Positions 2 through 62,702 of a stretch of 64,000 nt of DNA are shown here, in pieces. The number at the start of each line of letters is the position of its first letter. Within the stretch, counting starts at the first letter, position 1. The stretch comes from an uncultured Gammaproteobacteria bacterium (GTDB taxonomy: Bacteria; Patescibacteriota; Microgenomatia; Levybacterales; UBA12049). Under the pieces are notes generated by a model. The model had not been told where the DNA came from. It worked only from the letters and a program-made list of their open reading frames with translations, and did not search any database. Location of the stretch: the NCBI GenBank assembly GCA_964408485.1, contig CAYOZJ010000004.1:8685-72684 (forward strand), given 5' to 3'. A program made the translations under genes and the position numbers.

Positions 2-571
2 ACTGAAATAAGACAATACTTATCTGATTTACCTTTGGAATTTGTTTCACTTAAAGATGTTGGGATAACACAAGAGGTGGAAGAAGACACTAATACGTAT
101 GAAGGAAATTCTCAGAAAAAAGCATGGGAGTATTCACGTCTTTCAGGACTACCTGCGATAGCAGACGATGGAGGATTGGAAATTGCCGCATTAGGAGGAA
201 TGCCTGGGGTAAATGCACGATACTTTGGTGATGAAAAAGGTACAGATGAAGCAATTATTGAAAAAATGAAGCAGGTCCTTAAGGATGCGCCTGATGATAA
301 TCGAAATGTAGTATTTATTGGCGTCAATACACTTGCCTTACCAACTGGTGAATTATGGAGTACGCGCGCCGAAGTGAATTTAGAATTGGCAAAAACTCCA
401 GATCTTAAGTTTGTTACGGGATTTCCTTTTCGATCATTTTTGGTTTTGCCGGGGACAAATAAGTACTTTCATGAGTCAGAATTTACCCAAAAAGAAAGAG
501 AAGACTATAACCATAGGTATAAATCGCTCATGAAACTGAAGAAGATTATTCAGGAAAAGCTTCTTGTTTGA
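2..571 (+). CDS. rdgB: RdgB/Ham1-family non-canonical purine NTP pyrophosphatase, 5' partial (reading frame open to window edge; the listed ORF start at 35 is an internal TTG)
   Basis: LPAIADDGGLEIAALGGMPGVNARY and KDAPDDNRNVVF motifs align with E. coli RdgB residues ~65-120. About 30 N-terminal residues are missing. Frame has no stop back to nt 2. Confidence 0.8.
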   Translation, partial: TEIRQYLSDLPLEFVSLKDVGITQEVEEDTNTYEGNSQKKAWEYSRLSGLPAIADDGGLEIAALGGMPGVNARYFGDEKGTDEAIIEKMKQVLKDAPDDNRNVVFIGVNTLALPTGELWSTRAEVNLELAKTPDLKFVTGFPFRSFLVLPGTNKYFHESEFTQKEREDYNHRYKSLMKLKKIIQEKLLV

Positions 572-596
572 CACAAAGTCTTATTGGACGTATAAT
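567..596 (+). promoter_or_regulatory. Candidate sigma70-type promoter TTGACA-18nt-TATAAT overlapping the rdgB stop codon
   Basis: TTGACA at 567-572 and TATAAT at 591-596, seen directly. Function not tested. Confidence 0.35.
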
Positions 597-688
597 TTCT
601 TTATGACAACATACAAAAGTTCTTCCTCTAGCACTAAGAAGAGTGTGGCTGGGGATGATTGCATATAAAAAGAAATAAAAGCAAAGTA

Positions 689-710
689 CCCCGCCAAGGC
701 GGGGTTTTTT
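689..710 (+). terminator. Intrinsic terminator-like hairpin CCCCGCC-AA-GGCGGGG followed by T6, 13 nt before the serS ORF
   Basis: Perfect 7-bp GC stem plus U-run, seen directly. Confidence 0.6.
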
Positions 711-722
711 AATGGCATTTCG

Positions 723-2021
723 TTGCAGAAAGAGAGAATAGATGATATTCTCAAAATAATTACTATGATTGATATAAAGTTATTACGAGAGGATCCAAAT
801 TATTTTAAAAAATCAGCAGAAGCAAAAGGCGTTACAGTTAACATTGATCACATATTAGAGATAGACGAAGAGTACAAGAAGCTTTCTCAAATCGTTCAGA
901 CAATTCGAGAAGAAAGGAACGTGCTTATTTCTGCAATGAAAGGTAAGCCGGAGCCTGCGCAAATTGAGAAAGGGAAAGAACTTAAGGAAAAGTTGGAAAA
1001 AGAAGATCATGCCCTCACAGCAGTGTATGAAGAGCTGCAGCGTGAGCTACGAAAAATTCCTAATCCAATCAAGCCGGATGTAAAAATCGGAAAAGATGAA
1101 TCAGAAAATGAAGTAGTGAAGAAAGTTGGGACACCAAGAGAATTTAGTTTTACTCCCAAAGATCATCTGCAGCTTGGTGAATCACTCGATATTATAGACG
1201 TTAGTATTGCTGCAGAGATAAGTGGAGCGCGATTTGGATATTTAAAAAATGATGGAGCACTTCTGGAATTTGCGCTCAAGCAATTAGCATTTGATGTACT
1301 TTTACAGGAAGGATTTGCACCAGTTATTCCCCCTGTCCTTATTCGCAAAGAAATTATGGACGATTTAGGGTATACCGCAATGGGAGAGGATGAAAATATT
1401 TATGAAATTGCGAAGGACAACTTATATCTCGTTGGTACATCAGAGCAATCAATTGTTCCAATGTATAAAGACAGAACATTGCAAAAATCGGAATTACCGA
1501 AGCGTTTTGTTGGATTTTCGACATGTTTTAGACGAGAAGCGGGAAGTTATGGAAAAGATACTAAAGGAATTTTTCGCGTGCATCAATTTGATAAGGTAGA
1601 AATGGTAAGTTTTGTTGAAGAAGGAAAAGACGACGAAGAACATAAGTACCTTTTGTCGCTTGAGGAAAAGTTTTTCCAATTACTGGAGATTCCTTATCAA
1701 GTAGTTGCTATTTGTAGTGGTGATTTAGGATTTAATGCAGCACGAAAATACGATATAGAAGCATGGATTCCCTCACAAAATACGTATCGAGAAGTTACAT
1801 CGACATCAACAGTTACAGATTTTCAATCCCGGGGACTTAATATGCGGTATCTTGATGGGAGTGAAAAGAAATATCTTCATGTGTTAAATGGTACTGCATT
1901 TTCTATGACGCGCCCAATTATTGCAATTTTAGAAAACTATCAACAAGAAGATGGTTCGATTATTGTTCCAAAAGTACTACAAAAGTATTTAGGAAAAGAA
2001 AAAATTGCTCCTCAAAAATAA
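723..2021 (+). CDS. serS: Seryl-tRNA synthetase (class II). ORF begins with TTG at 723. An in-frame ATG at 765 (MIDIKLLREDPNYF) is the more likely start.
   Basis: N-terminal coiled-coil arm, class II core motifs (FRREAGS, GSGDLGFNAARKYDIEAW) and typical SerRS length. Confidence 0.9.
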   Translation: MQKERIDDILKIITMIDIKLLREDPNYFKKSAEAKGVTVNIDHILEIDEEYKKLSQIVQTIREERNVLISAMKGKPEPAQIEKGKELKEKLEKEDHALTAVYEELQRELRKIPNPIKPDVKIGKDESENEVVKKVGTPREFSFTPKDHLQLGESLDIIDVSIAAEISGARFGYLKNDGALLEFALKQLAFDVLLQEGFAPVIPPVLIRKEIMDDLGYTAMGEDENIYEIAKDNLYLVGTSEQSIVPMYKDRTLQKSELPKRFVGFSTCFRREAGSYGKDTKGIFRVHQFDKVEMVSFVEEGKDDEEHKYLLSLEEKFFQLLEIPYQVVAICSGDLGFNAARKYDIEAWIPSQNTYREVTSTSTVTDFQSRGLNMRYLDGSEKKYLHVLNGTAFSMTRPIIAILENYQQEDGSIIVPKVLQKYLGKEKIAPQK

Positions 2022-2267: not shown

Positions 2268-2339
2268 ATGCCAGTAAAGAAAAGAAAAGTTGCAAAGAAA
2301 AAAGTTGCAGCAAAGCGAAAGACAAAGAAAAGAAAATAG
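2268..2339 (+). CDS. 23-aa Lys/Arg-rich micro-protein MPVKKRKVAKKKVAAKRKTKKRK with a strong SD (AAAGGAGGTGA, 7 nt spacer). Possibly a bS22/Thx-like ribosomal peptide or other basic micro-protein.
   Basis: Perfect SD plus ATG, seen directly. Composition resembles very small basic ribosomal peptides. No homology check possible. Confidence 0.35.
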   Translation: MPVKKRKVAKKKVAAKRKTKKRK

Positions 2340-19346: not shown

Positions 19347-19490
19347 ATATCCATTTTAGCACATATCATTGTTCAAGCGAACCCTTCGATGCGATTTACT
19401 TACTCAGGGAAAATTTTGCCTGAGCGAAGTCGAAGGCTTAATAGTTACTCTCTCGAAGAATAATTAGGTATGTGCTACAATCATTTTGTT

Positions 19491-35407: not shown

Positions 35408-35490
35408 TATTCTTCGAGCAGAGCGAGAAGTTATTCCCCCAAGGGGACTAGCTTCACCGAAACGGCGTACTCCGTTCGAACAATAAATCT

Positions 35491-46810: not shown

Positions 46811-46880
46811 TTTCACTTTATTCTTCGAACGAAGTGAGAAGTTCTCCCTTTAGTTCTCGCCTTGCTCGAACAATAATCAT

Positions 46881-55434: not shown

Positions 55435-55552
55435 AAAACAAGTATAGTCTTCTTGTTCGAGCTTGTCGAGAACTTCTCGGCTTCCCAGATTCGGGACTAG
55501 TGCTCGATTCAGCATTTTCCTCGCCGAGGTGGCGTTCGCCGAACCGCCGCAC

Positions 55553-56974
55553 TTACTCGCTCGAAGAATAAAGTTCGTGAACTCTTTTTAATAAGTGTTC
55601 TTTATTATTCAATTCTAAATTCTCATCAACTTCTTCAAATAATTTTTGTAAAAGCTCTCCCACTTGTCGTCCTGGTTTCATGTTCAGCTCTTTCATAATG
55701 TCATTACCATCGATTACAAGGTCATTAATAGAAAATGGACCTGGTGCTAATTCTTTCTCAATTCGCTCTCTAAATAACTTTAATCTCCAAGATTCTGCTG
55801 TTTGGGTACCACTTCCTAATCTATCACCAATACGAAGATCTATCATATCTTTTACATTTTCAACACCAATACGTCGTATAAATCTTCTTACTGCACTATC
55901 TGTAATATGCTCGTCAACGGTAAACATATGCCAGCGAATAAGGGTAATAATTTTTTTCTTGTCCTTTTTAGAGAAATGAAGCCTATTTGCAATATCGTAT
56001 GCAATTTGCGCCCCTGCTATTTCGTGATTGTAAAAAATAACTAGTCCACTTTTGTCCTCACTTCTCACGCGAGGCTTACCAATGTCATGAATAAGTGTTG
56101 CAAAGCGGACAATGGAATCTGTTGCAGGAGTAAGTTTGAGACTAAGCACATTGTGAGTAAATACATCCTCTGTGTGATGTCTTCCGGGACGTTCCTGGGA
56201 CATGCCCACTCCTTCTAAGAGTTCAGGCAAAATATATTGGAGTAAATTAGCATTTTTTAAAAGCATAATTCCCTCATACGGATAATCACTTGCAAGAATC
56301 TTCATAAGTTCATCCCGAATGCGCTCGTTAGAAATGAGAGGAAGGAGTTGAGAGTCTTCTAAAATTGCTTTCCATGTATTCTCTTCAATGGTAAAGCTCA
56401 ATTGTGTTGCAAAACGAATTGCGCGCATAAGGCGTAGTGTATCTTCTTTAAATCGTTCGTTTGGATTTCCAACTGCTCGAATAAGATGGTTTTCTAAATC
56501 CTTTTGTCCGTGGTATGGATCCACAATGTTTTCTCCATTAGTCAGGCTAAGTGCCATGGCATTAATAGTAAAGTCGCGTCGTTGCAAATCTTCCTCGATT
56601 GTTTTTCCCCAAGCGACAATTTCTGGATGCCTACTGTCTGTGTAATTTCGCTCTGTACGGTATGTTGTTATTTCAACGATCTGGTTATTAGTTATTGGTT
56701 CGTGGTTCGTGGTTTCTTTTTCTTGTTCCGAACCATCAGCTATTAGCTCTAAACTAATCGGTACTCCCACTGTTCCAAACTGATTATCGTAAAAACCATT
56801 TGGGAAAACTTTTAAAATTTCCTCAGGTGTTGCATTGGTTGTCATGTCCCAATCTTTAACACTCTTTTTAAGAAACATGTCTCTTACGCAACCGCCAACG
56901 AAGTACACTTCAAAACCTGCGCGAGAAAGAGTATGGTATACTGACAAGACTGACTCTGGAATAGAATTCTCCAT
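55553..56974 (-). CDS. cca: tRNA nucleotidyltransferase (CCA-adding enzyme) with C-terminal HD domain. Start likely MENSIPESV at 56974.
   Basis: [22 protein letters not shown] and HD motif IHDIGKP. Confidence 0.85.
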
Positions 56975-61678: not shown

Positions 61679-62702
61679 GAGCAGCAATATACGCATAAAA
61701 TCCTTTATTTCCTTGAAATACAATAATTGGCCAAAGATACTGCTGAGATGTTGGATCTATAAAATATCCTAATGTAACATCGGTAATAGTAATATTTGTT
61801 TCTCCTGTTGGATTAGCGGCAATATACCCTTTTCCATCTTTTAATTCCGCAAAAGCCTGAGACGCACTTTTAATAGGATATGTTGCTTTATCGCTTGTAG
61901 TACTTCTGTGATAATATTGTGCTTCAATCAGTTGCGGGAAATCAGTTACCCCGGATGCAATAAGTGAATAAATAAGTGACTCAGCGGGGTTAACTCCAAA
62001 CACTGGAATTTTATCTATGTCTTTGGGGAAATAATCTACTCGAATCACTTGTGCATTGGATAGACTTGATGCGGGCTGTAGTCCACCTGGTCCAATAGAA
62101 AGAAGTGTTGTTTTAGTTTTGTTATCGTCAATAGAATTAGGAAGCGGCATAAATTTATCAAAGAATGTTTTACTAAATGTCCGTGCTGTTGCTTCGTCTG
62201 GCATATTTGCTGCATCTGTAACTGTTGTGTCATTTCTATATTGACTGGTTAGAGTAAAGTCAAATGACTGAATGTCCATATCAAGCGTTGAGGGTAATGG
62301 ATCAGTTTTGGTCCAGCGGTATGCAGTATCTGAAAGAGCAATGGGAGTGTTAGCAAATCCACCTGCTGCGGCGATATCCTTTGCTTTATCAAGTCCGAGT
62401 AAATTCGGTGTTGGCTGTTGCAACTTATATACATTCATACGGTCAGGTAGTGTAGGGAGACTTCCTGAAAGAGTATTAACTGTATACGAGTAATTTTTAT
62501 TATCTAAATTTTGAGGAAAGCTTACTAATGCAATTTTTCCAAATGCTACTGTTGGTGCTGGAAGAGGTGTTGGAGCAATAAGTTCTTTAACAAATGCGCC
62601 GACCTTAAAAAGGACAAAAAGTAACACAATTGCCGCGATACCAATTCCACCGATTTCAGCAATTTTTCTTGTAAGATCACTTACCTTGGACAGGGTAGCC
62701 AT
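61653..62702 (-). CDS. Hypothetical N-terminally anchored extracytoplasmic protein (349 aa). The ORF extends to 62912, but the start is likely MATLSKVSDL at 62702.
   Basis: TM helix IGGIGIAAIVLLFVLF follows the MATLSK start. No family recognised. Confidence 0.45.
   Translation of the reverse strand: MATLSKVSDLTRKIAEIGGIGIAAIVLLFVLFKVGAFVKELIAPTPLPAPTVAFGKIALVSFPQNLDNKNYSYTVNTLSGSLPTLPDRMNVYKLQQPTPNLLGLDKAKDIAAAGGFANTPIALSDTAYRWTKTDPLPSTLDMDIQSFDFTLTSQYRNDTTVTDAANMPDEATARTFSKTFFDKFMPLPNSIDDNKTKTTLLSIGPGGLQPASSLSNAQVIRVDYFPKDIDKIPVFGVNPAESLIYSLIASGVTDFPQLIEAQYYHRSTTSDKATYPIKSASQAFAELKDGKGYIAANPTGETNITITDVTLGYFIDPTSQQYLWPIIVFQGNKGFYAYIAALTDEWVRK

Follow-up and report, generated by a model that had tools for sequence, protein, structure and literature searches.

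A candidate serine leader-peptide attenuator upstream of serS in a Candidate Phyla Radiation bacterium

What governs a seryl-tRNA synthetase gene (serS) that stands behind both a strong promoter and an intrinsic terminator? The question is raised by contig CAYOZJ010000004.1, of which a stretch of 64,000 nucleotides (nt), hereafter the window, was analysed. The host is a Candidate Phyla Radiation (CPR) bacterium of low guanine-plus-cytosine content (37.6%), and in a scan of species-representative genomes the best matches of its seryl-tRNA synthetase (SerRS) are metagenome-assembled genomes of Levyibacteriota/Microgenomates. The leader region under study is flanked by a gene of the Ham1/RdgB family (rdgB; assigned by Pfam, ending at 571) and by serS. 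We propose, with a probability of about 0.65, that this leader is a classical ribosome-mediated (leader-peptide) transcription attenuator coupling serS to the supply of charged tRNA-Ser. The regulated gene would be serS, predicted to be the sole gene charging tRNA-Ser. This reading draws on a promoter, a leaderless ATG, a serine-codon run beside serS, a terminator, an antiterminator, an anti-antiterminator formed by the serine codons themselves and the placement of the stop codon (Table 1), from which we infer that the leader open reading frame (ORF) is translated, that ribosomes stall on it and that read-through responds to serine.

The leader opens with a sigma-70-type promoter that matches the consensus at all 12 hexamer positions, the sole such site on either strand of the window, where three others reach 11/12 and where about 0.1 would be expected by our estimate from base composition. 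A first-pass annotation of this DNA had described a near-consensus promoter at 567–596 with an 18-nt spacer; the element is even stronger than described, with a 17-nt spacer and a first base at 568. Its −35 hexamer overlaps the rdgB stop codon, as had been claimed (TTGACA 568–573 over TGA 569–571). Six bases separate the end of TATAAT (596) from ATG 603, whose A is the predicted transcription start. A good −10 hexamer lies 6–7 nt upstream of 44 of the 2267 ATGs in the window (2%), and about 20 of these 44 (about half) open ORFs longer than 140 codons with a start of the form TAnnnT-N6/7-ATG; examples of such long ORFs are those opening at ATG 9106, 10490, 16958, 21904, 22768, 24743, 36999, 42781, 43755, 56992 and 59413 on the plus strand and at 62702, 55434, 19346, 8759 and 7729 on the minus strand. 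These long ORFs argue that leaderless mRNAs of the pattern (T)GC-TAnnnT-N6-ATG are one main start mode here. Shine-Dalgarno (SD) sequences are rare in the window and −35 boxes mostly weak; in distant relatives serS itself is started leaderless, for example by TATAAT-CACAAT-ATG in L004. A relevant paper on Patescibacteria mentions leaderless mRNA in passing only.

Table 1. Positions of the promoter, leader, switch and serS elements discussed in the text (window coordinates).
Feature	Position	Strand	Basis or remark
Degenerate promoter copy TTTACC-18-TATAAC within rdgB	482..511	+	alignment with relatives
Sigma-70-type promoter, TTGACA 568–573, 17-nt spacer, TATAAT 591–596	568..596	+	12/12 match
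Predicted leaderless leader ORF, 21 codons plus UAA, MTTYKSSSSSTKKSVAGDDCI	603..668	+	ATG-initiated 3′ part of a listed TTG-start ORF, 564–668
Five tandem Ser codons AGU UCU UCC UCU AGC (codons 6–10)	618..632	+	both Ser codon boxes used
Region 1, UCUUCCUC, 5′ arm of the anti-antiterminator hairpin	621..628	+	inside the Ser codon run; minimum-free-energy fold
Region 2, GGCUGGGGAUGA	647..658	+	pairs with region 1 (via 651–658) or with the terminator 5′ arm (via 647–656)
Region 3, GUACCCCGCC, antiterminator 3′ strand	686..695	+	contains the entire terminator 5′ arm
Intrinsic terminator, stem ACCCCGC/GCGGGGU (688–694/699–705), loop CAAG, U-run 706–710	688..710	+	terminator scan, fold
Small hairpin GAGAAUA-GAUGA-UAUUCUC	735..753	+	in the 53-nt spacer; 712–764 folds at −9.9 kcal/mol, z −2.2
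serS, seryl-tRNA synthetase, 418 amino acids	765..2021	+	Pfam Seryl_tRNA_N and tRNA-synt_2b; start and length of homologues

From ATG 603 the transcript carries a short 5′ ORF with credible start signals, predicted to be translated from its first base. Its 21 codons hold five tandem serine codons upstream of serS and a sixth, AGU, at 642–644. Among the 712 short ATG-initiated ORFs (10–60 codons) of the window it alone has a run of at least four serines; runs of at least five occur twice in the 128,000 six-frame codons, and from these six-frame and ORF frequencies the chance of a five-serine run in the leader spacer is p ~0.003. The central three codons fall within a pyrimidine tract that doubles as a helix strand, and AGY codons flank it on both sides; that AGU and AGC extend the run beyond the tract speaks for selection acting on the encoded amino acid, not on RNA sequence or pairing alone. 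UCC and UCU codons had been noticed before and assigned to a small hairpin loop: the codons are present, but in the 5′ arm of a stem, as part of the five-serine run of an ORF that had escaped attention. The leader peptide has no Pfam match. No other terminator found in the scan of the window is preceded by a leaderless short ORF carrying an amino-acid run.

The strong terminator previously placed at 689–710 is confirmed, with a 7-bp stem at 688–705, six of its pairs G-C, a T-run reaching 710 and the tail TTTTTAA. Hairpins at about nine places were found by the terminator scan of the window, and this one has the highest number of G-C pairs, tied only by that at 2389, together with the cleanest T-run. 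At minimum free energy (MFE) the leader 603–712 folds at −28.6 kcal/mol (z −2.2) into the hairpin 621–628:651–658, a weak AU-rich stem and the terminator. Within the first of these, the 1:2 hairpin, bases 621–622 pair with 657–658 and 624–628 with 651–655 around an inner stem 631–635:642–646; it is present in nascent RNA up to 660–690 at −12.9 kcal/mol. When the nascent RNA ends at 697–700 and so lacks the 3′ arm of the terminator, the MFE structure is the antiterminator (−18.9 kcal/mol), in which GGC-U-GGGGAU (647–656) pairs with GU-A-CCCCGCC (686–695) and the whole 5′ arm of the terminator is sequestered. Alternative foldings had been recommended as a check, and this one, 647–656:686–695, excludes the terminator. 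As an intermolecular duplex between the upstream 81 nt and the terminator arm it reaches −14.6 kcal/mol, a value attained by 18 of 2000 dinucleotide shuffles (p = 0.009) and by 1.2% of 3000 random genomic 81-nt segments (p = 0.012).

The arrangement of these elements is that of an attenuator. The terminator lies between the ORF and serS and is mutually exclusive with the antiterminator, the 1:2 pairing overlaps the regulatory codons, and UAA 666–668, 10 nt beyond region 2, is where a ribosome that had not stalled would block that region. In folds constrained by masking ribosome footprints, the 1:2 hairpin was lost as expected and a footprint on the stop codon left the terminator alone. In the trp attenuator the terminator always wins at equilibrium; it does so here as well, so that the choice of structure would be kinetic.

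In the proposed mechanism, the strongest promoter of the window would direct RNA polymerase to start at A603, producing a leaderless transcript, and a 70S ribosome would initiate on the 5′-terminal AUG and trail the polymerase. With Ser-tRNA plentiful, the ribosome would pass codons 618–632 and reach the stop codon, where it would cover ~651–680, masking region 2 and leaving the terminator untouched; were it released early, region 1 would re-pair with region 2. By either route the terminator stem 688–705 would form and transcription would end at ~710, yielding an RNA of ~108 nt and leaving serS untranscribed from the 568–596 promoter. With Ser-tRNA scarce, the ribosome would stall with any of the five serine codons in its A site and a footprint extending to ~642–645, covering region 1 (621–628) and freeing region 2 (647–656). 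The latter could then pair with 686–695 as it emerges, sequestering the 5′ arm of the terminator and permitting read-through into serS, which would be translated without an SD, as appears to be the case for many internal genes of this genome.

How far serS depends on this read-through turns on where the gene begins. The 120 best SerRS homologues are nearly all ~418 amino acids long, and 10 of the 12 sequences inspected open with a conserved M(I/L)D(I/L) start matching ATG 765; the N-terminal extensions of the other two we take to be miscalled starts. A start at TTG 723 is ruled out by these N-termini. The first-pass annotation had relied on that TTG in placing serS 13 nt behind the T-run; with homologues starting at the position of ATG 765, the gap is 53 nt. 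Its argument that no space is left for a separate promoter is not confirmed; the dependence of serS on read-through may still hold on other grounds, as the gap contains no −10 of the type and spacing used in this genome. Inspection of the sequence upstream of the serS start revealed no SD and no TAnnnT or canonical −10 at leaderless spacing. A proximal promoter proposed by the promoter scanner, ATGATA-16-TATGAT (742–769, 9/12), is an unlikely source, since it would start inside serS.

The 53-nt spacer has features of its own. Its small hairpin (735–753) is probably what remains of a palindromic element found ahead of serS in relatives. Overlapping this hairpin is a mini-ORF of five codons (AUG AUA UUC UCA AAA UAA, 742–759, plus strand), which follows the purine-rich AGAAAGAGAGA and stops 5 nt short of the serS ATG; it may serve coupling or re-initiation, or may be due to chance. 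No tRNA or transfer-messenger RNA gene was detected in the window.

Relatives indicate what the locus looked like before. SerRS scans of species-representative genomes and Joint Genome Institute (JGI) metagenomes gave best identities of 65–68%, whereas a large protein collection yielded relatives at 78–84% identity, and for eleven of these the contigs were examined. As in the window, rdgB precedes serS in 10 of the 11. The rdgB–serS spacer is 0 nt (an overlapping ATGA) in five lineages and 56–133 nt in the others. In the remaining contig (L164, 82% SerRS identity) the genes ahead of serS (L164 1–1444) are of the 2-Hacid_dh and Aminotran_5 families, a serA-like plus serC-like pair of serine biosynthesis, so that the genes for serine synthesis and charging are adjacent there.

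In ten aligned relatives (L161, L165, L166, L168, L169, L171, L172, L173, L175 and L176), the rdgB coding sequence contains, within its final ~90 nt, an embedded promoter-like TTGACC-18-TATAAT, read as the codons E-L-T ... Y-N-H. TATAAT (Tyr-Asn codons) is present in 10/10 and TTGAC(C/G) (Leu-Thr), 18 nt upstream, in 8/10; the window alone carries a TATAAC version. Conservation at synonymous positions suggests a promoter embedded in rdgB, from which serS would be transcribed in the relatives. In the lineage with the newly gained 568–596 promoter this ancestral one has apparently decayed, which fits the former, and hence its terminator, now governing serS. With serS lacking TAnnnT and SD signals and the rdgB-embedded promoter mutated, the 568–596 promoter becomes the obvious source of serS mRNA.

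These comparisons also bear on the possibility that the juxtaposition is fortuitous: the terminator would simply end a lysS–rdgB unit, the hexamers would be accidental, the ORF untranslated, and serS would have a non-canonical start downstream of 711. Such an account could point to the distance of the terminator from the rdgB stop (117 nt, plausible for a gene end), to weak candidate −10 sequences at 752–760 and to the restriction of the leader unit to this sequence. It would have to accept that a 12/12 site of which ~0.1 are expected per window also has an ATG exactly at leaderless spacing, that the serine run (p ~0.003) and the antiterminator (p ~0.01) both arose by chance, and that the relatives, in five lineages with the ATGA overlap, co-transcribe rdgB and serS with no terminator between them. 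We consider it very unlikely.

Several observations weigh against the attenuator reading. The case as a whole is one sequence, and its statistics are post hoc. Twelve lineages whose SerRS is 78–83% identical have rdgB–serS spacers of 0–133 nt that contain neither a serine-rich ORF nor a terminator, and none of the eleven contigs carries the unit. When 161 serS loci were searched upstream for ORFs with at least three consecutive serines, only chance-like cases inside upstream genes came up, and the 193-nt spacer and its peptide were unmatched in blastn-short and tblastn searches of the window plus 176 loci. The leader unit thus is a singleton, present in this lineage only as judged from these sequences. 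Comparison among relatives had been suggested in the first-pass annotation, with lack of leader conservation named as a result that would tell against its proposal, and a lack of conservation is what emerged; because the relatives' spacers cannot be aligned with that of the window, and several measure 0 nt, we do not treat this as fatal. Structurally, the 5′ 85 nt of the leader are no better folded than shuffled sequences (z −0.84), and the 1:2 hairpin alone is insignificant against shuffles. Weak serS-proximal −10 candidates exist (AATAAT 755–760, 4 nt before the ATG, and CAAAAT 752–757); both break the TAnnnT-N6 rule of the genome, and a promoter there would be weak. To our knowledge, transcription–translation coupling has not been studied in CPR bacteria. 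Finally, the second-best promoter of the window likewise drives a short terminated RNA, so that a strong promoter followed by a terminator may merely mark small-RNA genes here.

This last observation leads to the main rival, an independent small gene: a transcript of ~108 nt (603 to ~710) acting as a small RNA (sRNA) and/or encoding the 21-residue peptide, with serS expressed separately by residual read-through or a weak proximal promoter, and with the serine run and the proximity of serS incidental. An independent sRNA of ~115 nt had been the alternative offered in the first-pass annotation. The unit is complete from promoter to terminator, such units recur (the second-best promoter, minus strand 59383–59354, leads to a short ORF, a very stable hairpin and a U-run), and lineage specificity is common to many sRNAs and small proteins. 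The 5′ 85 nt, however, have no significant structure, and neither Rfam nor Pfam gives a match. A small gene also leaves unexplained the unique five-serine run next to serS, the better-than-chance antiterminator pairing, and the want of a canonical serS promoter combined with loss of the ancestral one. On balance we judge this explanation unlikely, and the interest of the locus would be low if it were true.

Could the switch be an attenuator of another kind? In Firmicutes, serS is T-box-controlled, and the first-pass annotation had raised such control for this leader. A Firmicutes serS T-box (RF00230) would share the position upstream of serS, terminator read-through as its output and Ser-tRNA charging as its signal; the present leader, in contrast, has no Stem I, specifier loop or T-box sequence, is less than half as long, and would sense charging through the ribosome instead of by direct tRNA binding. 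RF00230 was matched neither in the window at its gathering score nor within 500–850 at E ≤ 10; the T-box core GGGTGGTACCGCG is absent from the leader with up to 3 mismatches allowed; and the ~85 nt preceding the terminator could not accommodate both Stem I and an antiterminator. T-box control is accordingly dropped, and of the leader-based attenuator with terminator read-through that had been suggested, the attenuator itself is retained, supported by the anatomy and by the antiterminator (p ~0.01). Ribosome-mediated attenuation through a leaderless leader peptide, to which the evidence points instead, had not been considered there.

More broadly, no Rfam 15 family reached its gathering score anywhere in the window. 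With permissive filters and E ≤ 10, the best matches on 500–850 scored 15–23 bits against thresholds of 41–134. These sub-threshold matches comprised the rnk leader, FtrA, Phe_leader, istR, Trp_leader and Leu_leader; the highest score, 23 bits, fell short of a gathering score of 55, and the displayed alignments were carried by the terminator hairpin. A switch set without a ribosome, by uncharged tRNA-Ser in the manner of a T-box, by SerRS itself (autoregulation, as for thrS) or by a small molecule, is consistent with the existence of alternative pairings and with the established T-box control of serS in Firmicutes. It is set against the T-box results just given, a poorly structured leader and the finding of no tRNA-like or known riboswitch fold, and it would leave the ORF, its leaderless geometry and the serine run unused, all of them coincidences. 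We regard it as highly improbable.

The ribosome-mediated attenuator that we favour has precedents. Classical attenuators are known upstream of pheST in gamma-proteobacteria and have been predicted ahead of trpS and leuS in Streptomyces (PMC1262725), a leader ORF lies before trpS in Caulobacter (PMC4117421), and in mycobacteria leaderless short ORFs with tandem cognate (poly-Cys) codons act as attenuators (10.1101/834739). Our literature search found no described leader-peptide attenuator for serine or serS. With the attenuators of aminoacyl-tRNA synthetases (E. coli pheST with its leader pheM; Streptomyces trpS/leuS, PMC1262725), the present leader shares a promoter, a short ORF with cognate codons, mutually exclusive hairpins and a synthetase gene, and also the logic by which slowed decoding of the cognate codons reports a shortage of charged tRNA and increases expression of the synthetase. 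It differs in its amino acid and target (serine and serS), in a leaderless ORF without SD, in its CPR/Patescibacteria host and in being unconserved among close relatives. Against the Rfam models Phe_leader, Leu_leader and Trp_leader it scores 15–19 bits, compared with gathering scores of 41–55, the matches being terminator-driven and implying no sequence relationship.

Attenuators of biosynthetic operons (trpL, hisL, thrL, leuL, ilvL; RF00513, RF00514, RF00506, RF00512 and others) have the same four-region architecture, with regulatory codons in region 1 and a stop codon that lets a non-stalled ribosome block region 2. Here, by contrast, the target is a synthetase, the ORF is leaderless, the element is a singleton, and its codons come from both Ser boxes and are read by different isoacceptors. 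Five serine codons compare with runs of seven His codons in hisL and four Leu codons in leuL. The mycobacterial 'Cys ribulon' (Canestrari et al., 10.1101/834739) resembles the leader in having a leaderless short ORF as first cistron and consecutive codons for one amino acid as sensor, in the remodelling of downstream RNA by a stalled ribosome, and in elements that evolve independently at each locus. The regulated element differs, since in the present leader it is an intrinsic terminator followed by a U-run, and serS lacks an SD that could be masked. A leaderless translational attenuator of the Cys type was rejected on these grounds and on the centroid fold, in which the leader ORF region shows no predicted pairing with the start region at 754–770.

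A wider proposition, on which we see the odds as evenly balanced, is that this is a recently born, lineage-specific serine attenuator, the first ribosome-mediated one reported for serS, for serine and for CPR/Patescibacteria, built de novo in a spacer that measures 0–133 nt in relatives, replacing the decayed rdgB-embedded promoter and demonstrating leaderless transcription–translation coupling in regulation. If true, it would extend classical attenuation to serine, to serS and to the Candidate Phyla Radiation, where gene regulation is almost unknown; it would imply that ribosome and polymerase are coupled on leaderless transcripts of a CPR bacterium; and it would provide a compact case of a complete sensor (promoter, sensory ORF and three-hairpin switch) arising or being swapped in within ~190 nt. 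It also suggests a search pattern for CPR genomes, namely a terminator downstream of a short, leaderless ORF that carries tandem cognate codons.

Other elements were observed in the window and in the relatives' contigs. A family of palindromic intergenic elements of 55–85 nt, with ends TTATTCTTCGA...TCGAA(C/G)AATAA and core CGAGAAGTTCTCG, occurs in the window at ~35408–35486, ~46818–46876 and ~55460–55571 and in partial form at 19453 and 58518. Members in relatives lie at L166 1368–1493, L168 1145–1191, L173 1124–1193 and L161 3187–3236. These elements form long hairpins (z −3 to −5.3), usually a few bases before a start codon, and the window has 13 occurrences of the sequence TCGAACAATAA with at most one mismatch, where 2.1 would be expected. 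Relatives carry such an element, with core GAGAAGTTCTC, between rdgB and serS exactly at the position of the window's leader. The family could represent repeats resembling repetitive extragenic palindromes (REP) or miniature inverted-repeat transposable elements (MITE), or a shared operator/promoter cassette.

Second among the promoters of the window is TTGACA-18-TATGAT (11/12), which heads a unit spanning 59383–59230 on the minus strand. It contains a 17-codon ORF (ATG 59342, MTNSVRHFIYICNLPIQ) and a nested hairpin of ~22 bp with a U-run (59306–59236, −38.1 kcal/mol, z −4.6), in which one AUCUCCCU/AGGGAGAU motif recurs in the inner and the outer helix. The unit lies upstream of a small SD-led gene (ATG ~59151), has no Rfam match, and is a candidate sRNA or second leader/attenuator.

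Between serS and secA, a conserved, extremely basic ORF of 22–30 residues, MPVKKRKVAKKKVAAKRKTKKRK, is found at 2268–2339 (plus strand) and in all seven relatives examined (L161 2989, L164 3093, L166 2996, L168 2746, L169 2668, L171 2718 and L173 2684). It has no Pfam match and was missed by gene callers or called in another frame (L166, L168). It has a strong SD, AAAGGAGGTGA, unlike most genes of this genome, and in the window a strong terminator follows at 2389–2414; the product may be a small ribosome-associated protein.

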